Assembly: GCA_026993075.1 (NCBI GenBank)
Contig: JALWUQ010000039.1
Coordinates: forward strand, 521-51,226
Source: Campylobacteraceae bacterium
Lineage (GTDB): Bacteria > Campylobacterota > Campylobacteria > Campylobacterales > JALSKU01
Direction: 5' to 3'
Length of the DNA: 50,706 bases
The translations under genes were made by a program, and so were the position numbers. Of this stretch, positions 165-50,706 are shown piece after piece. The first letter of the stretch is position 1. Each line of letters starts with the position of its first letter. A model generated the notes under the pieces. It was not told the DNA's origin and made no database searches. It worked only from the letters and a program-made list of their open reading frames with translations.

Positions 165-192
165 ACCAAGAATTTAGTAAGCCTTGGTTTAC
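161..192. terminator. stem-loop between convergent argH and HIT genes
   Basis: GTAAACCAAG (161-170) and CTTGGTTTAC (183-192) form a perfect 10-bp inverted repeat; no strong U-tract. Confidence 0.55.
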
Positions 193-208
193 GATGTTAT
201 ACTTATCA

Positions 209-565
209 CTATAAATAATTCTTACTTTCATTAGGGGCAAGCTGTGGCCAGATAAGTCTTGTACCTCCGAGAATATGAAAATGCAAATGCATGACTTCTT
301 GCCCGCCATCTTCTCCATTATTTACAACAAGCCTGTATCCTCTTGTATCAAGTTCAAGTTTCTTTGTCAATTCTTGAATAAAAATTGTCATTTTTGCCAT
401 CATCTCAGGTGTTGTATCTTGAAATTTTTCAACATGTTCTTTTGGGATGACCAGGATATGAATGGGAGCTTTTGGGTTTATATCATGAAAAGCTAAAAAT
501 TCATCATTTTCATAAACTTTATTGGATGGAATTTCGCCTTTGACAATTTTACAAAATATACACAT
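209..565 (-). CDS. hinT: histidine triad (HIT) nucleotide-binding protein
   Basis: MCIFCKI N-terminus, FHDINP, GQEVMHLHFHILGG histidine triad. Confidence 0.95.
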   Translation of the reverse strand: MCIFCKIVKGEIPSNKVYENDEFLAFHDINPKAPIHILVIPKEHVEKFQDTTPEMMAKMTIFIQELTKKLELDTRGYRLVVNNGEDGGQEVMHLHFHILGGTRLIWPQLAPNESKNYL

Positions 566-825
566 GAATTATCCTTTTTTTTCTTATTATATCCAAAAAT
601 TTTAGATTTTATATCTGCTTTTTTTACTTTTTTTGTAAATAAACCTTTGTTTGCTCCCAATATACCATAGTTTAAAAGGTATTTTAGGTAGTTTTTTTAA
701 TTAAGCCATTTTCCTCTATTTTAACGAAGTTAAGCTAATATAATACAAAAAATTTTAGATTTACTAAAATTTAATATACATTGTTGTAAAATAATCGCCC
801 TAATACGAATATTAAGGTAAATTAT

Positions 826-1818
826 TTGAATGACTATAAAGACAAAATAAAATCTACCATAGATTTAGATGAGCTTGAGAAGCTTAGGATTGAAATCTTT
901 GGTAAAAAGGGTGTTTTGGCTTCTTCTTTTATAAAGTTAAAAACTTTGGCAAATGAAGAAAAAAAAGAGTTTGCAAGTAAGCTCAATATTTTAAAAAAAG
1001 AGTTAAGTGACCTTTTGCAAGAAAAAAAAGAGTTTCTTGAGAGAAAAAGAGTGCAAAAAGTTATGCAAAAAGATGGTGTTGATGTTACTCTTTTTGATGC
1101 GGCTTGTGAGAGCGGAGCTTTACACCCGGTTCAAGCAACTATGGATAAAATCATAAATTACTTTTTAAATATGAATTTTGAAATTCAAGAAGGACCATTG
1201 GTTGAGGATGATTTTCATAACTTTGAAGCTTTAAACCTTCCAAAATACCATCCGGCAAGAGATATGCAAGATACTTTTTATTTTAAAGATTCAAAACTCT
1301 TAAGAACTCATACTTCGCCTGTCCAGATACGCACAATGCTCAAAAAAAAGCCACCTATTAGAGTTATAAGCCCCGGTGCTGTTTTTAGAAGAGATTTAGA
1401 CCTTACGCATACTCCTCAATTTCATCAAGTTGAGGGACTTGTGGTGGAAGAAGGAGATAAAGTTTCATTTGCAAATTTAAAATTTATTCTTGAAGATTTT
1501 TTAACTCATATCTTTGGAGATGTTAAAGTTAGATTTAGACCGAGCTTTTTTCCTTTCACAGAGCCTAGTGCTGAAGTGGATATAAGTTGTATATTTTGCA
1601 AGGGTGAGGGATGTAGGGTTTGTTCGCATACTGGATGGATTGAGATATTAGGTTGTGGGATGGTGGATCCAAATGTTTTTAGTGCTGTTGGCTATGAAAA
1701 TGTCAGCGGATATGCTTTTGGACTTGGTATAGAAAGAGTTGCGATGCTACTTCACCAAATACCGGATTTAAGATCACTTTATGAAGGAGATTTGAGATTG
1801 TTGGAGCAGTTTAAATGA
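826..1818 (+). CDS. pheS: phenylalanine-tRNA ligase alpha subunit
   Basis: [34 protein letters not shown]-like motif 3; TTG start. Confidence 0.98.
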
Positions 1819-4148
1819 TAATAACAAGAAATTGGTTAAATGAATGGATGGACATATCAAGTTTTACAAGTGAAAAAATTTGTGAAACTTTAAATGCAAT
1901 AGGCTTGGAAGTTGATAGCTTAACAAAGATAAGAATCCCTGAAAAAGTTGTTGTCGGTTTTGTAAAAGAGTGTATTCCTCACCCCAATGCGGATAAACTC
2001 TCTATATGTCAAGTTGATATTGGAGATACACTTACGCAGATAGTGTGTGGTGCTAAGAATGTAAAAGCAGGGCAATTTGTACCCGTAGCTATAATTGGTT
2101 GTGCTTTAAATGATAACTTTAAGATAAAAAAAGCAAAATTAAGAGGAGTTGAGTCAAACGGGATGATATGTTCCTCAAAAGAGATAGGCTTGCCAGAATT
2201 AAATGACGGAATATTAGAGCTTGATGAGAGTATAGGCAAACTTATAATCGGTAAAGAACTTTGTGAATATAGTGAATTAAATGATGATATAATAGATATA
2301 GAATTAACCGCTAATAGAGGTGACTGTCTTAGTGTATTTGGTGTTGCAAGAGACTTGAGTGCTGCACTTGAACAAGAGTTGCGCTATATAGAAGACATTA
2401 AAGATGAAGAAGGAAGTCTTGGAATAGGAAGGATATTGTCTTTAAAAGTAGAAAATGGATGTTCCTCATCTTTATTGTATAAAATTTTTACAAAAGATAT
2501 TCTTGAAAAACCTCTTCTTTTAGAATTGAGACTCTCATTTGTTAATAAAAAAGTAAATAATATATATGATATATATAAAACTTATACTACCCACTCAACA
2601 GGCGTAATCGTTAAATTATATTCATGTGATAAGATTATAAGTGAAGAAAATAAAAAATGTGAAATAATTTTGCAAAAAGATAAAAATGGCGCAGAGCTTA
2701 TAAAAATCAGAGATAAAATATCATATATAGGTTTAGATGAGAATGAAGAATTTAAGCCAGATGAAGATGATAAAACAATTATATTTGAAGAGAGTTATAT
2801 AAATCCTTTTGAGCTTTCAAAGGTTGGAAAATTTATTGATTCAAAATCTGACGCTACTTTTTATCATTGTAGCAGAGGAAGTGAGCCAAATCTCCAATTT
2901 GGATCAAAGTTTTTCAAAACAATACTAAATAAGTATTCAAAAGTACAGTGGTATAACGGTTCTGAAGTTATTGATAATTTACCAGAAGAAGCGATTGTAA
3001 ATATTTATCAAAATAAAATAAATGATTTAATTGGTATGGATATTGATAAAAACAATATTATAAAAATCTTGAAAAATCTTGGTTTTGCAATAAATGTTAA
3101 AGATGAGTCTGATTTGATAAGTGTAAAAGTACCTTTGCATAGGCATGATATTGTTAATGAGCAAGATATAACAGAAGAGATAGTAAGAATGGTTGGAATA
3201 GATAATATCAAATCAAAACCATTGGTATTTATAGAATCAAATAATCATAATGAAGCATTGAATAATTACAACAAGAGACTTTATTTTAGAAAAAAAGCAT
3301 CATCAGACGGTTTTTTTGAAATTGTAAATTATATATTTACTGACAGTAAAAAAGTAGAATTATTAAATTTACAAAGTCTTGAGAATTTAAAAGAGTTGGT
3401 AAATCCTGTAACAAATGAGCTGAATACCTTAAGAAGTTCTTTGCTTATCGGACTCCTTGAGACTGCAAGCAGGAATATCAAATATGGTAAGAAAAGTATA
3501 AGATTATTTGAGATGGGAAGTATTTTTGACCTAAACAGAAAAGAGAGTTTTGCATTTTCTCTTCTTTTTTCAGGAGAAACGCAAAGGGCTTCTATCAGAA
3601 ATAACGGAAAACCAGACATTATAAGTTTTTTTAATTTTTCTCAAAAAATTTCTTCAATTATCGGAAAGTTTGAAATTCAAAAAAGCCAAAATAAAAAAAG
3701 CTTTTTGTCTCCTTATGAATCAGGGGAAATTATAAAAGATGGTGAAATTATAGGAAATATAGGAAGGCTGCATCTTGATATTGAAAATGATTATGCACTA
3801 CCTGCAACATATTTTTGTGAGATAGATTTTGATAAATTGGTTTTTGCAGATGTCGTTGTAAAAGAATATTCCAAGTATCCATCTACCGAACGGGATTTTA
3901 GTTTTTTAGTTCCAAAAAATATCACATACAAAGATATAAAAAATATTATTTCTGAGCTTAAGCCAAAAGAGATAATTGGATTTTATCCAATTGATATATA
4001 TGAAAATAAAGAATTTAAAGATAATGTAAGTTTGACAATTAGATTTATTATGCAATCAAATGAAAAAACGCTAAACGATGAAGATATTACAAAATACAGT
4101 ACTGTTATTTTAGATGGACTTAAAGCAAAAGGTATAATTCTTAGATGA
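1815..4148 (+). CDS. pheT: phenylalanine-tRNA ligase beta subunit
   Basis: [25 protein letters not shown]5 '[14 protein letters not shown]', C-terminal FDX-ACB region; ATGA overlap with pheS. Confidence 0.97.
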
Positions 4149-5443
4149 ATTTACTTACGATAAAAAAAGCTAATGAGTTTGATATTACTATTGATAATAT
4201 AGCAAGTGACAAGTCTATATCACATAGGTGTGCAATATTTTCACTTTTAAGTGATAAGCCTTCATATATCACTAACTATCTTCAAGCTGAAGATACTTTA
4301 AATACTTTAAAAATAATACAAAATCTTGGTGCAAAAGTTGATGTAAAAAATAATATTATAACAATCATACCACCAAAAAGTATAATAGAACCTATAACTA
4401 GCCTGGATTGTGGAAATTCTGGAACCGCAATGAGACTAATGTGTGGTTTTTTAGCTCAACAAGATGGCTTCTTTGTACTCGAAGGAGATAAGTACCTCTC
4501 AAGCAGACCAATGAAGAGGGTTACTGAGCCTTTAAAAAAAATAGGCGCCATGATAGATGGAAGAGAAGGTGGCAATCTTGCTCCAGTTGCAATCAGAGGC
4601 AATACTTTAAAAGGTTTTAACTATACAAGCCCAATAGCCTCGGCACAAGTAAAAAGTGCTATGATATTATCTGTTTTGCATGCTAAAGAGAAATCTTATT
4701 ATTACGAACCCTTTTTAAGCAGGGATCACACCGAGAGAATACTAAATGCAATGGGTGCAAAAATAAAAAATATCAATAAAGCAAATAAAAAATGTATTGA
4801 GATATGTCCTGTAAATAAACCTTTAAAACCACTTGATATAGAAGTTCCAGCAGACCCTTCCAGTGCATTTTTCTTTGCTGTTGCTACTGTCATATCAAAA
4901 AATTCAAAAATAGTATTAAAAAATATATTATTAAACCCTACTCGTATAGAAGCTTTTGAAGTTTTAAAGAAAATGGGTGCAGATATCAAATATATCATAA
5001 AAAATAGTAAATATGAAACAGTAGGTGATATAATAGTAAAAAGCTCAAGCTTAAAAGGTGTGAATATAAAAGATAATATTGCCTGGCTTATAGATGAGCT
5101 TCCGGCTTTGTCAATTGCTATGAGCGTTGCTGAAGGTGTTAGTACAGTTACAAATGCAAAAGAATTAAGAGTCAAAGAGAGCGATAGGATAAAAAGTGTT
5201 GTGGCAAATCTAAAAGCATGCGGAGTTGATGCAAAAGAGCTTGAGGATGGATATGTTATAAATGGCTCTACAATAAAAAATGCACTTATTGACAGCTTCG
5301 GTGACCACAGAATAGCTATGAGTTTTGCAATAGCTGGAGTGATAGAAGGTATGAGTATAACTGATATTGAGTGTATAAAGACATCTTTTCCAAACTTTTT
5401 AGAACTTTTAAGTAAAATCACAAAGGTAGAAAATGCAAATTAA
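4145..5443 (+). CDS. aroA: 3-phosphoshikimate 1-carboxyvinyltransferase (EPSP synthase)
   Basis: [41 protein letters not shown]. Confidence 0.98.
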
Positions 5444-6257
5444 ATTGGCACAGAATTATGGATTTTGTTTTGGAGTAAAAAGAGCCATAAAGATAGCTGA
5501 AGAATCACCCAACAGTACAACTATTGGACCTTTAATACACAACAATGAAGAAATAAATAGGTTAAAAAATTCATTTAATGTTGATACAATACATGATTAT
5601 TCAAAGGCTAAAAATATAAAAAAGGCTATTATAAGAACTCATGGCATAACAAAAGATAATTTAAAAGATTTAAAAAATAATAATATTGATATAGTTGATG
5701 CAACTTGTCCGTTTGTCTCAAAACCACAAAAAATCTGTGAGCAAATGAGTGCAAAAGGATATCAAATCATTATATTTGGAGATATTAAACATCCAGAAGT
5801 TCAGGGTGTTATGAGTTATTCAAAAAATGGTGCAACTGTTATTTTGGATAAAGAAGAATTAAAAAATACTGCATTTCAGAGTAAAGTAGCAGTAATATCT
5901 CAGACAACAAGAAAATTTTCAGAATTTTTGGATATTGTTAATTTTATAATACCAAAATGTAAGGAAACAAGAGTTTTTAATACAATTTGTAATGCTACAT
6001 TTGAAAATCAAGAAGCCATAAGAGTTCTTTCTTTGGAGTGTGATGTTATGATCATAATAGGTGGGAAAAACTCTTCTAATACTAAGCAGCTTTATGCTAT
6101 TTCAAAATCAAATTGTTTTGACAGTTATCTGATAGAAAATGAGCAGGAATTAGAAAAAAAATGGTTTGAAAATAAAAATATTTGTGGCATAAGTGCCGGT
6201 GCTTCTACTCCTGATTGGATTATTCAAAAGGTTATGAGGAAAATAAAAGAATTATAA
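5433..6257 (+). CDS. ispH: 4-hydroxy-3-methylbut-2-enyl diphosphate reductase
   Basis: [32 protein letters not shown]. Confidence 0.97.
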
Positions 6258-6266
6258 TGATATAAT
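6258..6266 (+). promoter_or_regulatory. extended -10 sigma-70 promoter for rpsA
   Basis: TGATATAAT matches TGnTATAAT and lies about 90 nt upstream of rpsA. Confidence 0.6.
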
Positions 6267-6277
6267 AAAGGGAGATT

Positions 6278-6325
6278 TTAAGTTTTAAACTCAGGATTAA
6301 CTGTAATCTTAAATTTAGAGCTTAA
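6278..6325 (+). promoter_or_regulatory. long stem-loop in the rpsA 5' leader
   Basis: 20 of 22 positions pair (3 G-U, 2 C-A mismatches) around an ACTG loop. Confidence 0.5.
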
Positions 6326-6355
6326 GAGGCTAAAAATTTTACATAAGGAAGTGTG

Positions 6356-8041
6356 ATGGCAGAGGTGAACGATAAAGTTCAAGCAAACCGGGAGGTTGGC
6401 GAAAGTGAAGAAAATTTGGAAGATTTTGCAACAATGTTGGAAGAGTCTTTTAAAAAAGAGACTAGTGGTGAAAATATAGTTGACGGTGTAATTGTTGATA
6501 TCAATGAAAATATAGCACTTGTAGATGTCGGCAAGAAAAGTGAGGGAGTGTTAAATATCTCTGAAATTACTGATTTTGACGGTAATTTACAATATAAAGT
6601 CGGAGACTCCATAAAAGTTATAATTACCGGCTTTAGAAATGAACGACCGAGTGTATCTCATAGAAAAGCTCTTAAAAAAGAAAAGGTAAAAGAATTTATC
6701 AAAAATTATAGCGAAGATAGTGATCTAATTATAGAGGGTAAAGTCGTGGGTAAAAATAGAGGAGGTTTTATTGTCGATAATGAACAATCAATAGAATTTT
6801 TCTTACCAAGATCACAAGCTGCCTACAGAGATGCAAATGCACTTGTCGGAAAAAATATCAAGGCAAAAGTTATAAAAGTTGATAAAGATACTGAGTCAAT
6901 TATAATATCAAGAAAAAAATACCTTGATGATGAAAGAAAAAAGAAAAAAGAATTGATAGATAATTTATTAGAAACCAATGAGATTATAGAAGGTGTTATC
7001 AAAAAAATAACAACTTATGGAATGTTTGTTGATATAGGCGGAGTTGACGGACTTGTTCATTACAGTGAAATAAGCTACAAAGGACCTGTAAATCCCGCAA
7101 GTTTATATAAAGAGGGTGAAAGTGTGGCTGTAAAGGCTATAAAATATGATAAAGAGAAGAGACATTTATCGCTTTCTATAAAAGCTGTACAAAGTGACCC
7201 ATGGGAAGGTATAGATGAACAACTTGAAGTTGGAGATGTTATAAAAGTTATAGTTAGCAATATAGAGCCTTATGGCGTTTTTGTTGATATTGGAAATGAT
7301 ATAGAAGGCTTTTTGCATATAAGTGAAATCTCATGGGATAAAAATATAAAAAATCCTAAAGAATATATTCAAATTGGCGAAGAAATAGATGTCGAGGTTA
7401 TCGAAATAGACCCAAATAGCAGAAGGCTCAGAGTTAGTCTTAAAAATTTAAAAACAAAACCTTTTGAAGAATTTTTACAAAATTATAAAACAGGAGATAT
7501 TGTAAAAGGTATTATTACAACGATTACAAATTTTGGTGCTTTTGTAAAAATTGACGCGGTTGAAGGATTGCTTCATAACGAAGATACATCTTGGAATAGA
7601 AATGATAAATGTAAAGATTTATATACAGTTGGTGATGAAGTTGAAGTTAAAATTACCAAAATAGACAGAGATAATGAAAAAATATCTTTAAGTATAAAAG
7701 AATTATTGGAAAATCCAGTTCAAAAATATGCTAAAAATCATAAGGTTGGAGAGATTATTGAGGGAACAATACGAGATATGAAGGATTTTGGTATATTCGT
7801 TGAGCTTGAAGATAATGTTGATGCACTTATAAGAAAAGAGGATTTGGGAGATATTTCTTATGATGATTTGAAAATTGGAGATAAAATTGAATCAGTGATA
7901 GATTTCATAGATGGTCGCAAAAATAGAATAAGACTTTCAGTTAGAAAACTTTCTAAAATGAAAGAAAAGGCAATGTTAAATGAAATAAACAAGGATGACA
8001 AAATGACACTTGGAGATATCATACAAGATCAATTAAAATAA
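6356..8041 (+). CDS. rpsA: 30S ribosomal protein S1
   Basis: Six S1 repeats (YGMFVDIGGVDGLVHYSEIS, YGVFVDI..EGFLHISEISW etc.). Start is ATG 6356 or GTG 6353. Confidence 0.97.
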   Translation: MAEVNDKVQANREVGESEENLEDFATMLEESFKKETSGENIVDGVIVDINENIALVDVGKKSEGVLNISEITDFDGNLQYKVGDSIKVIITGFRNERPSVSHRKALKKEKVKEFIKNYSEDSDLIIEGKVVGKNRGGFIVDNEQSIEFFLPRSQAAYRDANALVGKNIKAKVIKVDKDTESIIISRKKYLDDERKKKKELIDNLLETNEIIEGVIKKITTYGMFVDIGGVDGLVHYSEISYKGPVNPASLYKEGESVAVKAIKYDKEKRHLSLSIKAVQSDPWEGIDEQLEVGDVIKVIVSNIEPYGVFVDIGNDIEGFLHISEISWDKNIKNPKEYIQIGEEIDVEVIEIDPNSRRLRVSLKNLKTKPFEEFLQNYKTGDIVKGIITTITNFGAFVKIDAVEGLLHNEDTSWNRNDKCKDLYTVGDEVEVKITKIDRDNEKISLSIKELLENPVQKYAKNHKVGEIIEGTIRDMKDFGIFVELEDNVDALIRKEDLGDISYDDLKIGDKIESVIDFIDGRKNRIRLSVRKLSKMKEKAMLNEINKDDKMTLGDIIQDQLK

Positions 8042-8082
8042 AGTATAATTTTAGAATTCACAAATGAATAAGGAGCCACAAG

Positions 8083-8574
8083 GTGAGTAAAAAGATTTTA
8101 TTTTCTATTTTTGCCTTGCTGTCTCTTTTTGTTATTGTTTTATTGGTTATTTTGCTGAGTAATACAAATAATATTCCAAATACTCTAACAAGGCATAAAA
8201 ATAGTTCTGCTCTTTCGTCTAATTCAAAAATTAAGAATTATACTTGGGCAAAAAAACTTTCAGACTACAAGCAAAGGGATTTTATGATGCCTGTTACAGA
8301 CTTGTTTATCTCAATAAAATTTAAAACAAATAATAAAAAAGTATTTAAAAAGAAAAAAAAGTATTTTAGATTGATAATTTCCAATCTTGATAATTATTCA
8401 CTTTTTTGTATTTTACAGGTTTTTGAAAATAAAAAAATTCCTTTTGTTATACAAAAAAGCTATAATAATTCTAAAATATATATGAATGCTGATAAAATGA
8501 TTGATTTAAGTAGCATCTCAAAAGAGTTAATGAAATATAATATAAAATCTAAGATAAAACTTGTTGAGAAATGA
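8083..8574 (+). CDS. membrane-anchored periplasmic hypothetical protein
   Basis: N-terminal TM helix; AAGGAG RBS and GTG start; occupies the rpsA-serA slot that holds a periplasmic protein gene in Campylobacter. Confidence 0.8.
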   Translation: MSKKILFSIFALLSLFVIVLLVILLSNTNNIPNTLTRHKNSSALSSNSKIKNYTWAKKLSDYKQRDFMMPVTDLFISIKFKTNNKKVFKKKKKYFRLIISNLDNYSLFCILQVFENKKIPFVIQKSYNNSKIYMNADKMIDLSSISKELMKYNIKSKIKLVEK

Positions 8575-8599
8575 GTTTATTTTATTGAAAGGTAAAATT

Positions 8600-10186
8600 A
8601 TGAGTGTAAATAAAGTTATTGTATGTGATACTATACACCAAAAGGGTATAAAACAGTTAGAATCTGAAGAGGATATTGAAGTTTTTAATGCAGCTGACTT
8701 GCCAAAAGATGAATTATTGGAGCATCTTGGAGGGTTTGATATAGCTATAACAAGAAGTTCAACTCCTGTAAATAAACTTTTTTTGGAAAAGGCAAGTAGC
8801 TTAAAAGCTTTGGTAAGGGCTGGCGTAGGTGTTGATAATGTTGATATGCAAGAGTGTAGTAAAAGAGGCATAATAGTAATGAATGTTCCTACTGCAAATA
8901 CAATAGCAGCAGTGGAAATGACTATGGCACATCTTTTGGCATCAGCAAGATCTTTTACAAATGCAAATAATGACTTAAAATTAAATAGAGTTTGGAAAAG
9001 AGAGAGTTGGTATGGTATTGAATTGTGTGAAAAAAAACTTGGAATTATCGGTTTTGGCAATATTGGTAGTAGAGTAGCCAAAAGAGCCAAAGCATTTGGT
9101 ATGGATATTGTTGCGTATGATCCATATATAAAACCGAAAAAAGCTATTGATATGGGGGTAAAATATACAGAAAATTTAGATGATATTTTGGCTTGCGATT
9201 TTATAACTATACATACTCCAAAAAATAATGAGACTATCAATATTATTTCTGATAGTGAGATTAATAAAATGAAAAATGGTGTCAGATTGGTTAATTGTGC
9301 CAGAGGTGGGCTATATAATGAAGATGCTCTGTATAAAAATGTAAAAAGTGGAAAAATTGCATATTTGGGCATGGATGTCTTTGTAAAAGAGCCTGCTGTG
9401 AATGATAAATTACTTGATTTGGAGAATATCTCAGTAACACCACATTTAGGTGCAAACACTCATGAATCACAAGAAAAAATTGCGACTCAAGCCGCGAGTC
9501 AGGCTATAAGTGCAGCTAGAGGGAGTAGCTATCCAAATGCTCTTAATTTACCTATTGATGAAAGCAAAGTCCCATCTTTTGTAAAACCTTATTTAGAACT
9601 AGTTCAAAAAATGGGATCTTTTGCTTCACAGGTTAATAAAGCTTCCATAGATACAATAAAGATTGTTACAGAAGGTGATATTTCGGAATATCTCGAATCT
9701 ATGTTGACATTTGCAATAGTTGGAGCATTAAAAGGCTCTATGGGTGAGCATATAAATTATGTAAATGCTGAATTTGTTGCTAAAGAAAAGAATATAAAAA
9801 CTATTACAGAAGTTACAAATACCAGTAGTGCGTTTAAAAACAGTATAGATTTATATCTTAGTACCGATAAAGGTACTACTGAGATAAAAGGAACTGTTTT
9901 TGGTGATGATGTTCAAAGAATAGTCCGTTTTGACGGATTTAATTTAGATATTGAGCCAAAAGGAAAAATGGTTATCTTTAAAAATACAGATGTACCCGGA
10001 GTTATAGGAGATATAGGAACAATTTTATCAAGAAATGGTATCAATATAGCTGATTTTAGACTAGGCAGAGACAATAAAAATCATGCACTTTCTGTTATAT
10101 TGGTTGATAATAATATTTCAAAAGAGGTCTTGCAGGAATTAGGTAAGCTTGCAACTTGTCTTGGAGTTTCTTATGCTGTTATATAA
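8600..10186 (+). CDS. serA: D-3-phosphoglycerate dehydrogenase
   Basis: RAGVGVDNVD, GFGNIG, NCARGG, TPHLGA, C-terminal ACT (DVPGVIG). Likely start ATG 8600 (ORF track 8561). Confidence 0.97.
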   Translation: MSVNKVIVCDTIHQKGIKQLESEEDIEVFNAADLPKDELLEHLGGFDIAITRSSTPVNKLFLEKASSLKALVRAGVGVDNVDMQECSKRGIIVMNVPTANTIAAVEMTMAHLLASARSFTNANNDLKLNRVWKRESWYGIELCEKKLGIIGFGNIGSRVAKRAKAFGMDIVAYDPYIKPKKAIDMGVKYTENLDDILACDFITIHTPKNNETINIISDSEINKMKNGVRLVNCARGGLYNEDALYKNVKSGKIAYLGMDVFVKEPAVNDKLLDLENISVTPHLGANTHESQEKIATQAASQAISAARGSSYPNALNLPIDESKVPSFVKPYLELVQKMGSFASQVNKASIDTIKIVTEGDISEYLESMLTFAIVGALKGSMGEHINYVNAEFVAKEKNIKTITEVTNTSSAFKNSIDLYLSTDKGTTEIKGTVFGDDVQRIVRFDGFNLDIEPKGKMVIFKNTDVPGVIGDIGTILSRNGINIADFRLGRDNKNHALSVILVDNNISKEVLQELGKLATCLGVSYAVI

Positions 10187-16379: not shown

Positions 16380-16937
16380 ATGGCAAAGGTATTGGTTCCG
16401 TTGGCAAATGGATTTGAAGAGATTGAAGCTATGAGTATTATTGATATTTTAAGTAGAAGCGGGGTTGATGTTGTTGTTGCAGGACTTGAAAAAAGAGAAG
16501 TTGAGGGTGCAAATACCGGTATGAAATTTATAGCTCATACTGTGCTTGATGAAGTTGATGTAAAAAAGCTTGATATGATAGTTTTACCGGGAGGTTTACC
16601 AGGAGCTGAATACTTGGCTAAAAGTGAGAAAGTAAAAAGTATCATTAAAGAACTCTCAGATAAAAATAAACCAATCGGTGCTATTTGTGCAGCACCCTGG
16701 GCATTAAAAGAAGCAGGTATCCTTGAGGGGAAAAAACATACAAACTATCCCGGTTTTGAAAGTCATACGGGAATTAAAGGGTATATCGATACTCAAAAAG
16801 TTGTAAAAGATGGCAATATTATAACTTCAAGAGGTCCCGGTACTGCTATTTGTTTTGCTTTGGAGATTGTAAAAATGCTTCAAGGAGATGATGCATATAA
16901 CCAGTTAAAAGAGGGATTATTGGTTGATTTTTGTTAA
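16380..16937 (+). CDS. DJ-1/YajL/ThiJ family deglycase-glyoxalase
   Basis: GFEEIEA, LPGGLPG, AICAAP, TSRGPGT. Start ATG 16380 after GGAG. Confidence 0.93.
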   Translation: MAKVLVPLANGFEEIEAMSIIDILSRSGVDVVVAGLEKREVEGANTGMKFIAHTVLDEVDVKKLDMIVLPGGLPGAEYLAKSEKVKSIIKELSDKNKPIGAICAAPWALKEAGILEGKKHTNYPGFESHTGIKGYIDTQKVVKDGNIITSRGPGTAICFALEIVKMLQGDDAYNQLKEGLLVDFC

Positions 16938-16977
16938 TTAATTTTTTAGCTAAAGTTTAGAATGAAAATCTTGAATA

Positions 16978-17044
16978 TTTCGTTTTTGCTAATAGGCAAA
17001 GCTTTAACGATGAATTTTCAAAGATTTATATCTTTGAAAAGGAG
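16978..17044 (+). repeat. dispersed intergenic repeat, copy 1 (hairpin + SD of rmuC)
   Basis: TTGCTAATAGGCAAAGCTTTA...TTTTCAAAGAT-TTAT-ATCTTTGAAAA-GGAG; similar copies at 34511-34577 and 50635-50700. Confidence 0.85.
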
Positions 17045-17052
17045 ATTTTAGG

Positions 17053-18720
17053 ATGAATAATATAAATATTGACTATGAAGTTATAACAATAATCTTTATA
17101 GTTATCATTTGCTTTGCTGCTCTTGGTTTTTGGATACGAAATATTTTTAAAATACACCTGAGTGATAAATTAAATGAAGTTGAAAAAGAATTAAATGAAA
17201 AAAAAGAGTTAGTAGCTCAAATACCGTTCTTAAATGACAATATTAAAAATTTAAAATATGAAAAAAACTTATTAAATGATACTCTAAACAGTTTAAAAGA
17301 TAAATTATCTCAAAAAGAAGTTATTATTGCTGAAAATGAAAAAGACAAACAAAGCTACCTATTGAGCATAAATGAAAAAGAAAATACTCTACAAAAACTA
17401 AAAGTTGAAAATCGTGAATTAAATAATAATATAGATATTTTGAAAGATAAAATATCAGATTTTAAAATAGCAGTTGAAAAAACAGATAATAAAAACAGGC
17501 AATTAAATGAACAATTAAGTTATTTTAAAAATGAAATACATGAAATAAAAACTATTAATGATGAGCTAATAAAAGAAAAAAATATACTTATACAAGAAAA
17601 ATCAAAGTTTGAGGCAAATTTACTTTCTTTAAGAGAAAATAATAAAAAACTTCAAGATGATTTTGACAATCAAAGTAAAAAGTTAGAATTAAAACTAAAT
17701 GAAATTATGCAACAAACAATAGATAGCAAAATTAAAAAATTTGATGAAACATCTATGAAGTCGCTTGATAATATTTTAAAGCCGTTTAAAAATAATATAG
17801 ATTCGTTTCAAAGGCAAATTAGAGATTCTCAAGAAAATAGTACAAAAAAATTTGCAGAACTTTCAAAAGAGATTGAAATGGTTGCTAAAGCCGGTATAAA
17901 TATATCAAATGAAGCACAAAATTTAACACAAGCATTAAAAGGGAAAAAACAAGCCCAGGGCAGTTGGGGTGAAATGATACTTGATAGTGTGCTTGAATAT
18001 TCAGGTCTTTTAAAAGGTGTTCATTATGATAAACAAGAGAGTTACAGAGATGAAAAAAAGGAATTAAAAAGGCCTGATGTGATTGTGAAATTGCCGCAAA
18101 ATAGGACTATTATAATAGATTCTAAAGTTTCTTTAAATGATTATGATAATTATATAAAAGCTGAAAGTGATGAGAAAAAAATATTTTATGCAAAAAATAT
18201 TTCAACAGCTTTTAAAAATCATATAGATATACTCAATTCAAAGGATTATGCTCATTACAAAATAGGAACTTTACAATATATCTTTATGTTTGTTCCGATT
18301 GAGGGTGCATTTGCAACGGCTGTTCAAAATGACCCTGGATTGTACGAATATGCCCTTAGAAAACATATAGCCATCGTTACGCCATCAACTCTTACAATTT
18401 CACTTAGAACTATATATCTTTATTGGCAAAGCGAGCAGTCAACTTCTTTGGCGGTAAAGCTATTTGATGAAGCAGGTAAACTTTATGATAAAATGGTTGG
18501 ATTTAGTGATAGTTTTAGAAAGATAGGAAATCAAATCCAAACGCTGCAAAATAGCTTTGAAACAGCAAATACACAGCTTGCTAAAGGTAATGGTAATGTT
18601 TTAAAACGAGTGGAAAATTTAAAAAAATTAGGGGCAAAAACTACAAAATCATTAAAAAATTCAAAAGTAGATTATGAAGATTTTGATGAAGAAAATATAG
18701 AAGTTAAAATGCTTACTTAA
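17053..18720 (+). CDS. rmuC: DNA recombination protein RmuC
   Basis: N-terminal TM and coiled coil; QGSWGEMIL, RPDVIVKLP, IIDSKVSL, MFVPIE. Confidence 0.93.
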   Translation: MNNINIDYEVITIIFIVIICFAALGFWIRNIFKIHLSDKLNEVEKELNEKKELVAQIPFLNDNIKNLKYEKNLLNDTLNSLKDKLSQKEVIIAENEKDKQSYLLSINEKENTLQKLKVENRELNNNIDILKDKISDFKIAVEKTDNKNRQLNEQLSYFKNEIHEIKTINDELIKEKNILIQEKSKFEANLLSLRENNKKLQDDFDNQSKKLELKLNEIMQQTIDSKIKKFDETSMKSLDNILKPFKNNIDSFQRQIRDSQENSTKKFAELSKEIEMVAKAGINISNEAQNLTQALKGKKQAQGSWGEMILDSVLEYSGLLKGVHYDKQESYRDEKKELKRPDVIVKLPQNRTIIIDSKVSLNDYDNYIKAESDEKKIFYAKNISTAFKNHIDILNSKDYAHYKIGTLQYIFMFVPIEGAFATAVQNDPGLYEYALRKHIAIVTPSTLTISLRTIYLYWQSEQSTSLAVKLFDEAGKLYDKMVGFSDSFRKIGNQIQTLQNSFETANTQLAKGNGNVLKRVENLKKLGAKTTKSLKNSKVDYEDFDEENIEVKMLT

Positions 18721-24183: not shown

Positions 24184-24288
24184 AGAGTATTTTACTGTAA
24201 AAATATTAAACTTTCGATAGAATTTAACAAGTGATGCAACAATACAAGGAGTTTGAAAAGAGTTTATCATTTAAAAGGAGAATTGAAG

Positions 24289-26990
24289 ATGATGTATCTA
24301 AGTGGAAAATATCGTGAGTTTTACGAAGTCATTACTAGTGTATTACCAAAAAAAAGAGTATTTACGGATGCTTTGCATACTTTGACTTATGGAAGTGATG
24401 CATCATTTTACAGGATGATTCCTAAAATTATTATATTTGTAAAAAAATCAAATGAAGTTCAAGAAATATTAAAGATATCAAATATGTTGAATATTCCTAT
24501 TGTTTTTAGAGCCGCCGGTACTTCACTTTCCGGATAAGCTATAAGTGATAGTGTTTTAATTGTAACTTCAAGGGGTTGGAAAGATATAAGAGTAGGAAAC
24601 AAGGCTGCGACTATAACGCTTTTATCTTCTGTTACAGGAGATAGTGCAAATATGGCTTTAAGTAAATTTTGCAAAAAGATAGGACCTGATCCTGCATCCA
24701 TAAAATCATGTATGATTGGAGGAATAGTGGCCAATAACGCAAGCGGTATGTGTTGTGGAGTAGATCAAAATTCATACAAAACGCTTAAAAATATGAAAAT
24801 TATACTGCAAGACGGGACAAGATTGGATACATCCAATGAAGTAAGCAGAAATAAATTTTTAAAAACTCATCATCAATTTTGTGAAAAATTGCTTCGTTTA
24901 AGAGATAAGATTTTAAAAGATGAAAAACTAGTTAAACTTATCAAAAGAAAATATAAAATAAAAAATACTTGCGGATACAGTATAAATGCATTGATTGATT
25001 TTGATAATCCTGCTGATATACTTTTGCATCTGATGATAGGGAGTGAGGGAACTCTTGGCTTTATTGAAGAAGTTACTTACGATACAGTCGAGGATCTTCC
25101 TTTTAAGGCTATCTCTTTAATGCTCTTTAAAGATATAAAAACTGCTGCAAATGCCGTACAAAGACTCAAAAAAATTCCTCGAAGTGAAGTTCCTGCGGCT
25201 GAACTTATGAATAGGGCATCTTTAAGAAGCATCCAAAACAAACAAGGTTTGGAATTTTTAAAAAGTTTGGATGAAAAAGTGGCTGCTTTATTGGTAGAGA
25301 CAAGATCAACTCAAAAATCAGACTTACAACTGCAAATGAATAAAATTATAAATATTTTAAAAGGCTTACCAACAATCAAACCTATAGTTTTTAGTGATGA
25401 TGTAAAAATCTACCAGAAATACTGGAATATAAGAAAAGGATTGTTTCCTTAAATCGGAGCTATGAGAAAACAAGGCACCACTGCTGTTATAGAAGATATT
25501 GCTTTTCCTATGGAAAAACTTGATGTTGCCACTTTAAAGCTTCAAGCATTGTTTAAAAAGTATGATTATGATGAAGCTATCATTTTTGGACATGCACTTG
25601 ATAGCAACTTGCATTTTGTTTTTACACAGGATTTTTCTATCCCGCAAGAGGTTTTAAGATATAAAAATTTTATACAAGAAGTTACAGATATGGTGGCGGT
25701 TAATTATAAAGGAAGCTTGAAAGCAGAACATGGGACAGGGAGAAATATGGCTCTTTTTGTTGAGCTTGAATGGGCTAAAAAAGCATACGATATTATGAAA
25801 AAAATAAAAGATATATTTGATTCTAAATATCTTTTAAATCCGGGTGTTTTGATAAATAATGATAAAGATATATATCTTAAAAATCTAAAACCGCTATATC
25901 CTACAAATCCTTTGGTTGATAAGTGTATAGAGTGTGGCTTTTGTGAGCCTGTCTGTCCTTCAAATGCTTTAACTCTTACTCCAAGACAAAGGATAGTTGC
26001 TAACAGAGAGATGAGTAGATTTGCTCACATAAGTAAATACAGCAATACACTTGAAATATTGCAAAAACTGTATAAGTATGATGGCAAGCAAACATGTGCT
26101 ACTTGTTCACTTTGCTCGACAAGTTGTCCAGTTGAGATATATGTTGCAAATCTGACAAAAGAGTTAAGAGAAAAAAATATAGGAAAATTTTCTAAAAATA
26201 TAGCAAATCATTATAGTGCCACTTTGAATATAGCTAAATTTGCTCTTGATATAAATTCATTGACCGGTTTTGTATTTGGTGAGAGAATTATGCAAAAAAG
26301 TATGGATTTTTTAAGGAAAGCGACACATGGCAAAGTTCCAAAATATTCTTTATATATCCCAAAAAGATCACATTTTTCAGCCAATAAATTTTTAAAAAAC
26401 AGAGGTGGTGAAAAAGTAGTATATTTTACATCTTGTATATGTAGAACTTTTGGCAATCAAAAAGAAAGTGATGAGAAGCTTGAGCTTTATGAAGTGATAA
26501 ATACATTGATAAACAGAGCCGGTTATGAGATAATTATCCCTAAAAATATAGAAAATCTTTGCTGTGGAACTCCTTTTAGCTCAAAAGGTTATAAAGAGGA
26601 AGCAAATTTGCAATTGAAAAATCTTGAAAATGCTCTTTTTGATGCAAGCGAGGGAGGGGAGTTTCCTATACTTTGTGAAACTTCTCCTTGTGTAAAAGCT
26701 ATGATGCAAGGGTTTAAAAGTAAATTAAAAGTATATGAGCCTATAGAATTTACCTTAAAATTTCTTTCTCCCAAATTGAAGTTTAAAAAGATTTCTGAGA
26801 GTATCGCCATCCACTCAACTTGCTCCACTGTAAAAATGGGTTTAAAAGAGAAGTTTTTTGAATTAGCAAAAATGTGCAGTGATGATGTTATAATTCCAAA
26901 AGATGTAACATGTTGTGGCTTTGCCGATGACATAAGTATAACTCAATATTTTATTTAGTAGAGAAATGTACAAGAGCAAATAGAGCTTAA
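24289..26990 (+). pseudogene. FAD/Fe-S D-lactate dehydrogenase (Dld-II type), inactivated
   Basis: One frame with FRAAGTSLSG*AISD (TAA 24535-37) and GLFP*IGA (TAA 25450-52), KAEHGTGRN, CIECGFCEPVCP and CCG motifs. A deletion/frameshift follows CCGFA, and the C-terminal remnant HKYNSIFYLVEKCTRANRA* is in another frame (26931-26990). Confidence 0.9.
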
Positions 26991-27838: not shown

Positions 27839-28183
27839 ATGTATTTTATAAATGAGAAAGAGTACACATGCCCCGTATCCATAACACTTGATATCTTTAA
27901 TGACAGATGGAAATTATCTGTTATTTGGTATCTTTTAAAAAGTAAAAAAAGATTTAAAGAATTAAGTGATGACATTAGTGAAATAAGTCAAAAAACGCTT
28001 ACTGTCAAACTAAAAGAATTAGAAGAAAAAAACATAATTCATAGAGAAGTTTTTGCTCAAGTACCCCCTAAAGTTGTTTATTCTTTGACGTCAATCGGAC
28101 AAAAACTAAAACCAGTATTAATGAATATGTATGAATGGGGAGAGGAGTATGTCAAGGAGAATGGAGAATTAGTTAAAAACTGA
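27839..28183 (+). CDS. HxlR family (MarR/DUF24) redox-sensing transcriptional regulator
   Basis: N-terminal CPV, RWK, RFKEL, PPKVVYSLT; divergent from the nitroreductase. Confidence 0.93.
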   Translation: MYFINEKEYTCPVSITLDIFNDRWKLSVIWYLLKSKKRFKELSDDISEISQKTLTVKLKELEEKNIIHREVFAQVPPKVVYSLTSIGQKLKPVLMNMYEWGEEYVKENGELVKN

Positions 28184-28298
28184 CCTTACGCACTTTTTTC
28201 TCGAAAAGTCCTACTTTTCGTAAGCTTCAAAGAGTTGTAGGGACTTTGAGTTTCTGCCACAATAGAAAGCTTTGCTCATTATAGTGCGTAAGGTCAGT
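28179..28298. mobile_element. MITE-like element, 120 bp
   Basis: Perfect inverted repeats AACTGACCTTACGCACT (28178-94) / AGTGCGTAAGGTCAGTT (28283-99); candidate TAAAA direct repeats (28174-78, 28299-303); no coding capacity. Confidence 0.65.
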
Positions 28299-28319
28299 TA
28301 AAATAAGATATAATACCAA

Positions 28320-33252: not shown

Positions 33253-34420
33253 TATTGCCGTTAGCACTGTATTTTTGAATGCAGCTCAATATGATATATT
33301 GTCAAAAACAAAAAGAGGTATTATAGAAAACGAAAAAAAGCAAAATAAAAAAAATAGTGATATTCTAAAATTTGACTGGATTAATCCAATAACCGGATCT
33401 TACTCTCATACTATTAGCACACAAACTTCACCAAGTCAAACTATTGACAATCTTTCTATATCTTTAAATCAACCTATTTTTAGAAGCGGAGGGATATATT
33501 ATGCTATAAAGTATGCAAATGCGAATAGAGAATTTCTTAAATTTGCAACTTCTTTGAGTGAAAAATCACTTTTATTTAATGCTTATACAATACTTTTGAA
33601 TTTAAAAAATCTTAATTTAAGTATAAAAAAACAAAAATTATTGATCAAGAATGCAGTGATAAATATAACTGTAAAAAAAGAACAATACCTCAAAGGTTTA
33701 ATCGACAGTAGTTTTTTAGATAATGCAATATTCAATAAAAATTCCCTTGATATTGGACTTTTAAATATGCAATCTTCTAAAGTTGATTTGGAAAAACAAT
33801 TTAAAGTGATAAGCTCACTTAATTATAAAACTATAAAGCTGCCACATTTAAAACTACTAAATTTATCTAAATTTTTGAAATCCAACTTAGTTCTTAAAGA
33901 CTCAATGGCCAATATAAAACAGACAAATTATCTTAAAAAAATGACTATATCAAAGTATTTACCAACTGTTTCGCTTTTTGCTAACTATAATAGCAGCAGA
34001 ATCAGTTATATAGGAACTGTTCATGATAGTTACAAGCAATATGGTATAAATATATCTATGCCTTTATTTGATATAAACAGAGGTAAAAATATACAATTAC
34101 AAAAGTTGAAATACTTAAAATCAAAACTTGAAATGATTGATAAAAAACATCAAGAAAAAGAGTTGTATAAATCAATAGTTGAAAAAATTAAAATATATCA
34201 TAAAAAGATAGCATTGGCAAAGAAACAAGAACACCTTTATGCTTCGTTGCTTAGTAGCACAAAAGATTTATACAAAGCAGGTGAAAAAACTGTATATGAT
34301 GTGGATACCATGCAAAATTCATTAAGAAGCACAAAGATTGATAAATATATTTATCAAAATGATATTGATTTATTGTTACTTAGCTTATATGCACATCTTG
34401 ATGATAAACAAAAATTATGA
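33230..34420 (+). CDS. TolC family outer-membrane protein
   Basis: Signal peptide from ATG 33230; QPIFRSGG; YLPTVSL..MPLFD. Confidence 0.8.
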   Translation: MLLKIFLSIAVSTVFLNAAQYDILSKTKRGIIENEKKQNKKNSDILKFDWINPITGSYSHTISTQTSPSQTIDNLSISLNQPIFRSGGIYYAIKYANANREFLKFATSLSEKSLLFNAYTILLNLKNLNLSIKKQKLLIKNAVINITVKKEQYLKGLIDSSFLDNAIFNKNSLDIGLLNMQSSKVDLEKQFKVISSLNYKTIKLPHLKLLNLSKFLKSNLVLKDSMANIKQTNYLKKMTISKYLPTVSLFANYNSSRISYIGTVHDSYKQYGINISMPLFDINRGKNIQLQKLKYLKSKLEMIDKKHQEKELYKSIVEKIKIYHKKIALAKKQEHLYASLLSSTKDLYKAGEKTVYDVDTMQNSLRSTKIDKYIYQNDIDLLLLSLYAHLDDKQKL

Positions 34421-34560
34421 TTTTTATACTCTTGCTGATAGGCAAAGCTTTAGTGAGAGGAATTTTCAAAGATTTTACATCTTGATGATAAACAAAAATT
34501 ATGATTTTTATACTCTTGCTGATAGGCAAAGCTTTAGTGAGAGGAATTTTCAAAGATTTT
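34393..34560 (+). repeat. exact 84-bp tandem duplication
   Basis: 34393-34476 is identical to 34477-34560; ACATCTT occurs at 34393, 34477 and 34561. Confidence 0.92.
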
Positions 34561-34577
34561 ACATCTTTGAAAAGGAG
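34511..34577 (+). repeat. dispersed intergenic repeat, copy 2 (hairpin + SD of methyltransferase); truncated duplicate at 34427-34483
   Basis: CTTGCTGATAGGCAAAGCTTTAG...TTTTCAAAGAT-TTTAC-ATCTTTGAAAA-GGAG. Confidence 0.85.
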
Positions 34578-34585
34578 AAATAAAT

Positions 34586-49760: not shown

Positions 49761-50627
49761 ATGAATTTTGGACAAAAATTTTCCACAGGTGGTAAAATTT
49801 TTACCACTTTGATTATACTTTTTATGCTTTTTTCATCGGTTTACGCAAAAAAAATTACATTTGCTTTTACAGGTACCACTTTGAAAGAAGATTTAAAAAC
49901 TTATCTTTTGTGGCAAAGATATTTGGAAAAAAATTCTCATTTTGATATAGGGATAAAATTTGCTAGAACTTATGCAGAAGTTATATCAAGTATAAAAGAT
50001 GAAAAAACCGATATTGCTTATGTATGCAGTTCAACTTATATGATTCTAAGAGATAAAAAAAATGCAAGATTATTAGCAATTCCTATAATAAATGGTAAAG
50101 ATAAGTACTACTCTTATGTTATTGCTCTAAAAAAAAGTAAATATAAAAGCTTGCTTGATTTTAAAGGAAAAATATATGCTTTTACTGATCCAGGATCTAA
50201 TTCAGGAGCTATAGCCCCAACTTATTTTTTATTAAAAAAAGGATACAAGGTAAATACTTTTTTTAGAAACTTAGTTTATACTTATGACCATGGCGAATCT
50301 ATAAAAGCAGTAATAGACGGTTTTGTAGATGGGGCAAGTGTGGATAGTTTGGTTTATACACAGTATATAAAAAAACATCCAAGTGCTACAAAAAAGTTAA
50401 GAATTGTTCAAAAGTTGGGATCTTTTACCATTTCTCCTATAGTAATAAGATATAACATCAACAAAAAAGAGTTTAAAAAACTTCAAGATTTGTTTTTGAA
50501 TATGAATAAAACAAAAATAGGAAAAGAGATACTAAATCATTTAAATATTGAGAGGTTTGTAAAACCTTCCAATCAGGAATATACTAAAATTTATCAAATG
50601 CAAAAATATATAAAAGAGCATAAGTGA
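49761..50627 (+). CDS. PhnD-fold periplasmic oxyanion-binding sensor, AioX/ArxX/ArrX-like
   Basis: Signal peptide; RTYAE, DIAYVCSSTY (Cys), YYSYVI, FTDPGSNSG, TYDH..SIKAV..G.VDGASVDSLVY. Confidence 0.8.
   Translation: MNFGQKFSTGGKIFTTLIILFMLFSSVYAKKITFAFTGTTLKEDLKTYLLWQRYLEKNSHFDIGIKFARTYAEVISSIKDEKTDIAYVCSSTYMILRDKKNARLLAIPIINGKDKYYSYVIALKKSKYKSLLDFKGKIYAFTDPGSNSGAIAPTYFLLKKGYKVNTFFRNLVYTYDHGESIKAVIDGFVDGASVDSLVYTQYIKKHPSATKKLRIVQKLGSFTISPIVIRYNINKKEFKKLQDLFLNMNKTKIGKEILNHLNIERFVKPSNQEYTKIYQMQKYIKEHK
49768..49807. promoter_or_regulatory. tandem palindromes, putative enhancer (activator) sites
   Basis: Perfect 19-bp palindrome GTGGTAAAATTTTTACCAC (49789-49807) and degenerate TTGGACAAAAATTTTCCAC (49768-86), 21 bp apart. 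Confidence 0.55.
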
Positions 50628-50634
50628 AGTATTC

Positions 50635-50700
50635 ATTCTCGCCGATAGGTATAGCTTTAGTTCAAGGAATTTTCAAAGATTTTACATCTTTGAAAAGGAG
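50635..50700 (+). repeat. dispersed intergenic repeat, copy 3 (hairpin + SD of next gene beyond window)
   Basis: CTCGCCGATAGGTATAGCTTTAG...TTTTCAAAGAT-TTTAC-ATCTTTGAAAA-GGAG. Confidence 0.85.
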
Positions 50701-50706
50701 ACATTA

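Follow-up and report, generated by a model that had tools for sequence, protein, structure and literature searches.

A probable MIRU-like repeat with an mRNA hairpin under selection occupies gene starts in environmental Campylobacterales

We describe a family of short interspersed repeats that sit at the start codons of functionally unrelated genes in environmental Campylobacterales, in the orientation of the gene, and that end in a hairpin, a consensus Shine-Dalgarno (SD) sequence and a start codon. In our judgement these are probably gene-start insertion repeats of the MIRU type, with a hairpin that is selected in the mRNA. The family was recognized from three copies in a 50,706-nt stretch of DNA from a Campylobacteraceae bacterium (contig JALWUQ010000039.1 of assembly GCA_026993075.1), which is referred to below as the window and for which an initial annotation had been made from the sequence.

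Results

Three sense copies lie at unrelated loci in the window

A pattern search of the window with TTTTCAAAGAT-N4/5-ATCTTTGAAAAGGAG returned matches at 17015-17044, 34547-34577 and 50670-50700, each on the + strand. As the initial annotation had described, each of the three is a sense copy of an 11-bp stem (P3) with a variable loop (TTAT in copy 1, TTTAC in the other two) and with a 3' arm that runs into AAAAGGAG; hairpin and AAAAGGAG together were matched three times in the window and not once in 100 dinucleotide-preserving shuffles. The small 5' hairpin proposed at the same time (P2) also pairs in all three copies, as TTGCT-AATA-GGCAA, TTGCT-GATA-GGCAA and GCC-GATA-GGT. The extent of about 65 nt given there holds P2, P3 and the SD, but the units begin further 5', at an ATG or GTG (16962, 34501 and 50624), and measure 84-88 nt. 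At 34417 and 50624 the first codon of the unit overlaps the stop codon of the upstream gene (ATGA or GTGA). Pfam matches for five window proteins bore out the neighbours that had been named, with DJ-1/PfpI and RmuC around copy 1, OEP (TolC-like) and Methyltransf_28 around copy 2, and Phosphonate-bd (AioX-like) before copy 3.

Copy 1 is a short-form unit on the + strand (16962-17052), preceded by the DJ-1/PfpI gene, which stops at 16937, and followed by rmuC (ATG at 17053), and it was found by our covariance model R1 at G000:C39:17491-17575 with an E-value of 4.6e-16, G000 being the source genome. Its P2 (TTGCT / AATA / GGCAA) lies at 16986-16999 and its P3 (TTTTCAAAGAT / TTAT / ATCTTTGAAAA) at 17015-17040, directly abutted by the SD GGAG at 17041-17044. 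The order DJ-1/rmuC was shared only by the related genome G004, where the junction is also filled, and no empty version of this site was found; the G004 copy has a diverged 5' half and a broken P2, while its P3 and SD are identical to those of copy 1. Metagenome contigs span copy 1, without differences in runs X1 and X2 and with differences in X4 and X6.

Copy 2, also on the + strand, consists of a truncated extra unit (34417-34483), whose first ATG overlaps the TGA (34418-34420) of the TolC-like gene and which is cut short at ACATCTT, within the 3' arm of P3, and a complete unit (34501-34585; R1 E-value 5.0e-20) that ends at the start of the Methyltransf_28 gene (ATG at 34586). In the complete unit P2 is found at 34516-34529, P3 at 34547-34573 and the SD GGAG at 34574-34577. 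The locus forms a perfect tandem repeat (34393-34567; period 84 nt, 2.1 copies, 100% matches), with the duplication junction falling in a 7-nt microhomology, ACATCTT. Metagenome contigs from four DNA runs stop inside this repeat and are silent on the 84-nt duplication.

Copy 3 (50624-50706, + strand) is the first unit of a tandem array and is cut by the window end and by a 100-N scaffold gap, beyond which stands half a further unit. The GTG at which it begins (50624) overlaps the stop codon of the AioX-like gene (TGA, 50625-50627), and P2 (GCC/GATA/GGT), P3 and GGAG follow at 50641-50650, 50670-50696 and 50697-50700. In G004 the same locus holds at least two units and then reaches a contig end. 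The gap itself (C39:51227-51326) begins 1 nt past the window end at 50706, within the repeat array. Across it the scaffold links the AioX-like gene to a sensor-kinase gene, and a G004 contig links the C75 end, two units and that same kinase; either the source or the G004 assembly may have been mis-joined at the repeat.

Some other features of the window were recorded alongside these copies. At 24214-24291 (C39:24734-24811), just 5' of an ORF start, R1 gave a weak match (E-value 0.013), which is either a very degenerate copy or a chance match. After position 26193, contigs of all four metagenome runs have 12 additional letters (AAAAATATAGCA). An element of about 128 nt at 28178-28305 is bounded by the inverted repeats AACTGACCTTACGCACT ... 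AGTGCGTAAGGTCAGTT; its contig depth in the four runs was 170-9,000 over its bin, with single places reaching 16,000, compared with roughly 13-560 in most other bins, and many contigs end there or "go back", so that this is probably a high-copy MITE-like repeat.

The family has one orientation and ends at start codons

The source assembly (1.906 Mb, 31% G+C, 88 contigs, every run of N being a 100-N scaffold gap) was searched with nhmmer, starting from seven copies, and with R1, which was built from ten. R1 returned 26 matches at E<=1e-3. For 18 of the 26, the final ATG or GTG is the start of an ORF of 121-799 aa; four run into the start of the next tandem unit and four are cut by a gap or contig end. 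Apart from the palindromic stem itself, no antisense copies were seen in the source genome. The genome-wide covariance-model search, a check that had been suggested with the initial annotation, revealed a strict bias in orientation and start codon. Covariation of P3 is present as well, as set out below. The genes served are functionally unrelated: they include a multihaem cytochrome, CapD-like, RmuC, a methyltransferase, ProB, PanD, RpoN, ClpX, SdhB-like and response regulators, names that reflect a reading of N-terminal sequences except for the five window proteins with Pfam matches. Copies of the element also sit at two scaffold gaps and at one contig end (C75) of this assembly.

From 5' to 3', the constant part of the element comprises a core of about 33 nt, YTCTTGCC-loop-GGCAAAGCTTTAGTGAGAGGAATT, which contains P2; then P3, the sequence of which is variable; the consensus SD AAAGGAGA directly after P3; 6-9 nt; and the start codon. 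The long forms, about 130 nt in length, have the 5' end RTGAAACAYTCATG and a further, long-range stem, P0, which covaries and encloses an A-rich loop of 20-31 nt, as in one example where GAAACACTCATG pairs with CATGAGGGTTTC. In the short form, seen in the window copies and in arrays on C24, C46 and C75, the P0 module is shrunk to a remnant such as ATGAAATATTTCATT; the window copies have lost most of the long-form 5' module. One long-form copy (G000 C26:19594-19723, - strand) has 42 additional nt inside the conserved core, with a hairpin of their own (TTCCCA...TGGGAA), and these nucleotides are missing in the orthologous G004 copy.

Copies are gained or lost between close relatives

A comparison of orthologous intergenic regions, likewise suggested at the outset, revealed presence/absence differences between relatives at four loci. 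At the TolC-like/methyltransferase junction of copy 2, nine genus relatives are empty, G004 has one unit, lacking the truncated extra one, and the source genome has 2.1 units. In the empty junctions stop and start codons overlap or directly adjoin each other (ATGTGA, TGGTGA, TAGTG, TAGTTG), except that in G001, G005 and G009 the stop comes 1-13 nt before the start. At a second locus, G004:C260 is filled by a 97-nt insert between GGTGAAG repeats, and the corresponding site on C34 of the source genome is empty, with only GGGTGAAG, in which stop and start codons overlap. At a third, C66 of the source genome is filled and G004:C205 is empty, ATGAAAT|ATACT having as its counterpart ATGAAAT plus 101 nt ending in GTGAAAG|ATACT; here the former ATG opens the element and the gene begins at the element-borne GTG. 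The fourth, obg-proB, is filled in the source genome and empty in G003 and G010, and the start is ATG in G010 (G003 has TTA at the aligned place) and GTG in the filled source genome.

Parsimony favours gain at the TolC-like/methyltransferase and obg-proB loci, and gives a direction for those two loci only; the C260/C34 and C66/C205 differences represent gain or precise loss. Where copies come and go in this way, the flanks are about 95% identical between the genomes. In close relatives the element lies at start codons between direct repeats RTGAA(R). Both element ends share RTGAA with the target, so that these end repeats may be either a target duplication or homology that guided the insertion. 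One further copy, at C5:33977, was uninformative in this respect, since in G004 the contig breaks off at the element, and in G003 both the element and the downstream gene are missing.

Unit number varies as well. C88 has two long units in the source genome versus one in G004, and the closed genome G102 contains an array of 3.9 units with a period of 76 nt (L221, G102:C1:602344-602637), in which only the last unit has the ATG end and the inner units end in ...GGAGATAAATCAAATAA. Judged from these aligned assemblies, units have been shown to multiply in tandem and to be gained or lost between close relatives.

The main hairpin is conserved as a helix in the sense transcript

To describe the main hairpin we used an alignment of 81 distinct sequences, in which P3 shows double changes in 8 of 10 pairs. 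Double-change cells numbered 214, against 68 +/- 7 in shuffles, and none of 500 shuffles reached 214; 96% of P3 cells were paired, and slid controls of the whole two-helix structure gave 46-66%, with the proviso that this large alignment was fitted to the model, so that pair counts lean towards it. Its members were chosen by a pattern fixing P2 and part of the core, so that core conservation is overstated. Within P3 we counted 687 Watson-Crick cells, 49 with sense-strand G.U or U.G and 10 with A.C or C.A. This excess of G.U points to an RNA helix in the sense transcript, since such an asymmetry is expected from an RNA helix and not from a DNA hairpin.

The same tendency was seen in place. For 16 copies compared between G000 and G004, with 400-nt flanks that are 92-98% identical, the orthologous elements differ at 184 of 1416 aligned columns. 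In P3 these differences include two compensatory double changes (TTCTC/GAGAA to TTCCC/GGGAA; TTTAC/GTAAA to TTTTC/GAAAA) and four single changes that preserve a sense-strand G.U pair, and the loops vary freely. Gene conversion between copies could lie behind part of the compensatory changes. Taken together, the substitution patterns of aligned copies show that P3 is kept by selection on the sense transcript. For the main hairpin, the RNA-structure reading of the initial annotation was thereby upheld, by covariation, by the sense-strand G.U excess and by compensatory changes in orthologues. When each window copy was folded as a single sequence, P3 formed in all three, the z-scores being -3.4, -3.1 and -1.1.

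The other helices differ in what they display. P2 is invariant by design in the pattern-selected set, and the G102 variant TCGAC/GTCGA represents two compensatory pairs. For P0, at least 11 of 12 pairs form in 21 of 74 copies, whereas exchanging the arms between copies gives a mean of 5.9 such copies and a maximum of 16. The flank pairing suggested earlier (P1) is present in the copies for which it was named, as TCGTT/AACGA and CTCT/GAGAG, but shows no family-wide covariation: its paired fraction, 73.1% of cells, equals that of shuffles and there are no double changes, in what is a weak test given that the 3' strand is partly fixed by the pattern.

Several possible roles of the structure were considered and set aside. 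The idea that P3 keeps the SD accessible was rejected, as the predicted unpaired probability was 0.479 for native sequences and 0.469 when the upstream part was mononucleotide-shuffled, and native exceeded shuffled in 42 of 78 copies (p = 0.59). An alternative long hairpin that sequesters the SD was part of the minimum-energy fold in two of four long-form copies and was dismissed as a family feature, the window type of P3 being without it. Consensus scans found no terminator-like site inside the element. A promoter inside it was also rejected, with weak promoter-like matches only, 2-3 where about 1 would be expected, all of them outside the conserved core.

Many copies contain a short ORF that runs to the next start

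In many copies an ORF of about 29-32 codons, with an SD, runs from the ATG or GTG at the 5' end of the element to a point at or beside the downstream start. All three window copies contain such a pass-through ORF. In copy 1 it has 29 codons, from the ATG at 16962 to a TAG at 17049-17051, and stops 1 nt before the rmuC start; in copy 2 it ends 10 nt inside the downstream gene; and in copy 3 it would stop 1 nt before the start, provided that the unit after the gap continues the ORF.

Across 78 copies, the coupling frame, in which the TGA of RTGA is read, is open through the core in 43, the third frame in 37 and the gene's own frame in 18. The ORF ends exactly in an RTGA overlap in 34 of the 78 copies and within -6 to +12 of the start in 52, leaving 26 with no such frame through the core. 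The third and the coupling frame thus differ little in how often they are open (37/78 versus 43/78), and these counts do not prove selection for coupling. On the basis of the open frames, translation through the element is plausible and would be frequent. The peptide is unconserved, the same nucleotides being used in different frames among copies: the arrays encode ...ILADRQSFSxRNFQRFYIFEKE... and window copies 2 and 3 encode ...LIGKALVRGIFKDFTSLKRR....

The family is common in vent-dwelling relatives of Campylobacter

A pattern for the core alone, without SD or ATG, matched at least 117 stretches in contigs representing one genome per species. Among the loci listed, R1 found the whole element in 78 of 80 (82 matches), and the record titles among the matches listed name Sulfurovum, Sulfurimonas, Sulfurospirillum, Nitratifractor and unclassified Campylobacterales. 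One carrier is Sulfurimonas sp. CS5 (locus L090), which has a complete genome and is listed as an isolate, not a metagenome-assembled genome. For the 95 core matches in the listed loci and the source genome, an RGGAG and a start codon were present downstream in 83, within 100 nt in 78 of these 83. When the class was sampled evenly, R1 matches at E<=1e-6 came from 11 of 151 genomes and 7 of 37 genera; at the same threshold there were no matches in the two largest families sampled (0/53 and 0/60 genomes). Among relatives of the same genus, 8 of 10 had the element by BLAST. The family is common in hydrothermal-vent relatives of Campylobacter.

Other repeats of the source genome include a palindrome, GTAGGGAC-N-GTCCCTAC, with 10 copies on 10 contigs. 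The genome also has Y1_Tnp genes (IS200/IS605 or RAYT-type) at G000 C30:5744-6070 (- strand) and C56:4364-4699 (+ strand), in open frames of 259 and 281 aa. These genes and palindromes may constitute a REP/RAYT system unrelated to the element studied here.

Discussion

The explanation that we think probable is that of an interspersed gene-start insertion repeat, MIRU-like in its strategy and belonging to environmental Campylobacterales, whose hairpin is selected in the mRNA. The element occupies a gene's start codon, in most cases directly after another gene of the same direction, with the old start (RTGAA...) staying at its 5' end, and its 3' end provides the stable P3, a consensus SD, a spacer of 6-9 nt and a new ATG or GTG. 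On this explanation, cells would tolerate the insertion since the interrupted gene is again translated, by way of the SD and start codon that the cassette brings and, for many copies, also by way of the short pass-through ORF. That ORF would lead from the old start, often overlapping the upstream stop, to a place at or next to the new start, where ribosomes would be passed along in the same manner as at the ATGA or GTGA overlap that preceded the insertion, re-creating the coupling of the empty sites. As for P3, it would most likely either tie downstream initiation to ribosomes that unwind it or protect the downstream end of the mRNA.

MIRU repeats (mycobacterial interspersed repetitive units), whose original paper is said to be that of Supply et al. 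in 1997, form variable tandem arrays. By functional analogy they are the closest described system. The element belongs to a known, little-studied kind and represents no new category. Like them it is short, interspersed and found at the start codons of unrelated genes in gene orientation, it has a pass-through ORF ending in an RTGA overlap in 34 of 78 copies, and it forms tandem arrays that differ in copy number. According to a review of MIRUs, replacement translation signals let the repeat insert at a start codon, an ORF inside it is then coupled to the gene at a spacing of -4 nt, and short leader ORFs serve the same purpose in biotechnology (PMC12548453). The likeness is functional and does not make one homology family; MIRUs belong to another phylum, and no sequence relation is expected. 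The element differs in having its own consensus SD and new start codon, a conserved core and a hairpin under RNA-level selection, and long and short forms, and in that the pass-through ORF is missing in about a third of copies. Our literature search, in openly available full texts, retrieved no description of the family, and the passages matched in one of the papers contain no mention of such repeats (PMC3847290).

The competing explanation that survives best, which we nevertheless consider unlikely, is that of a dispersed cis-regulatory RNA, in which core and hairpin dock a trans-acting factor (a CsrA-type regulator, an RNase or a small RNA), the carriers are its regulon and mobility accounts for spread only. 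RNA-level selection on P3 (G.U 49 versus A.C 10) and the in-place compensatory changes in orthologous copies would fit such a docking site. So would the near-invariance of the core across records labelled as several genera, but the search pattern makes the core look more conserved than it is. On either side of the hairpin stands a purine tract with GGA, GAGAGGAA and AAAGGAGA, and the spacing of two such tracts around a hairpin would suit a CsrA dimer; yet copies decay, P2 being broken in the G004 rmuC copy and window copy 1 being without GGA. The downstream genes are functionally unrelated, units form arrays, and copies come and go between genomes with flanks about 95% identical, all of which speaks against a regulon. 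No known RNA family accounts for the element either: Rfam, a match to which would have spoken against the initial annotation, gave none in the window at gathering thresholds and none at E<=1 in 12 loci that hold copies, and a riboswitch or other known RNA was ruled out by the absent Rfam match together with the unrelated downstream genes.

A bolder version of the preferred explanation, to which we give little credence, would make the element a natural, self-spreading "bicistronic design" cassette with a core and hairpin read by a host factor. Through its arrival at start codons it would bring unrelated genes of vent Campylobacterales under one post-transcriptional circuit, or enforce translational coupling once inserted, and so do more than be tolerated. 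In synthetic bicistronic designs, the 3' end of a leader cistron carries the SD of the second cistron, and its stop overlaps the next start (ATGA). The element shares with them the short leader cistron with the next SD in its 3' end and a stop overlapping the next start, and differs in being natural, repeated and apparently self-propagating, with a conserved hairpin abutting the SD. The review of MIRUs mentions this design, in which a short leader ORF delivers ribosomes to a gene of interest, in general terms (PMC12548453).

It is still less likely that we are dealing with a DNA-level element like REP, PATE or MITE, whose hairpins would be substrates of a Y1 (IS200/IS605, RAYT-type) transposase and would have no role in mRNA. 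REP/BIME (with RAYT transposases) and the Correia (CREE) repeats of Neisseria are short structured intergenic repeats in operons that can affect mRNA stability or processing, and the element likewise is short, structured, intergenic and located inside operons. It is, however, strictly of one orientation, lies on the 5' side of genes, supplies translation signals and is without a GTAG-type motif. The source genome does have two Y1_Tnp genes, and the element is rich in hairpins and polymorphic at sites with short flanking direct repeats; but its ends are direct repeats, RTGAA, and terminal inverted repeats were not seen by eye in aligned copies. All copies have a single, sense orientation relative to the downstream gene, none is on the Y1_Tnp-carrying contigs C30 and C56, and the Y1_Tnp genes are more probably partnered by the GTAG-type palindrome (10 copies). 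Moreover, sense-strand G.U is tolerated far above A.C, unlike in a DNA hairpin or cruciform. What the initial annotation had called a mobile or REP-like "portable RBS" cassette has therefore held in part: gain and loss at start codons, variable arrays and an SD with start codon at the 3' end support the portable cassette, while a strict likeness to REP finds no support in the single orientation, and no tie to RAYT was seen. Finally, that the short ORF encodes a functional micro-protein or leader peptide is very improbable, for although many copies have an ORF of about 29-32 codons with an SD and an ATGA or GTGA overlap, its frame differs between copies over the same nucleotides, stem covariation alters residues non-conservatively (F, S or L; E or V), and the ORF is split or missing in some copies.

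Automatic annotation of Sulfurovum, Sulfurimonas, Sulfurospirillum and related genomes will meet this repeat at dozens of gene starts, where it breaks assemblies, creates spurious mini-ORFs and shifts start codons from ATG to GTG. In terms of biology, the family would provide a second, unrelated and structured example of the MIRU strategy, in which translation signals brought by the repeat replace those of the gene and so allow it to settle on a start codon. In addition, the selection seen at the RNA level in aligned copies suggests that the host mRNA depends on the hairpin, and since the carriers include the isolate Sulfurimonas sp. CS5, with its complete genome, this function is directly testable.
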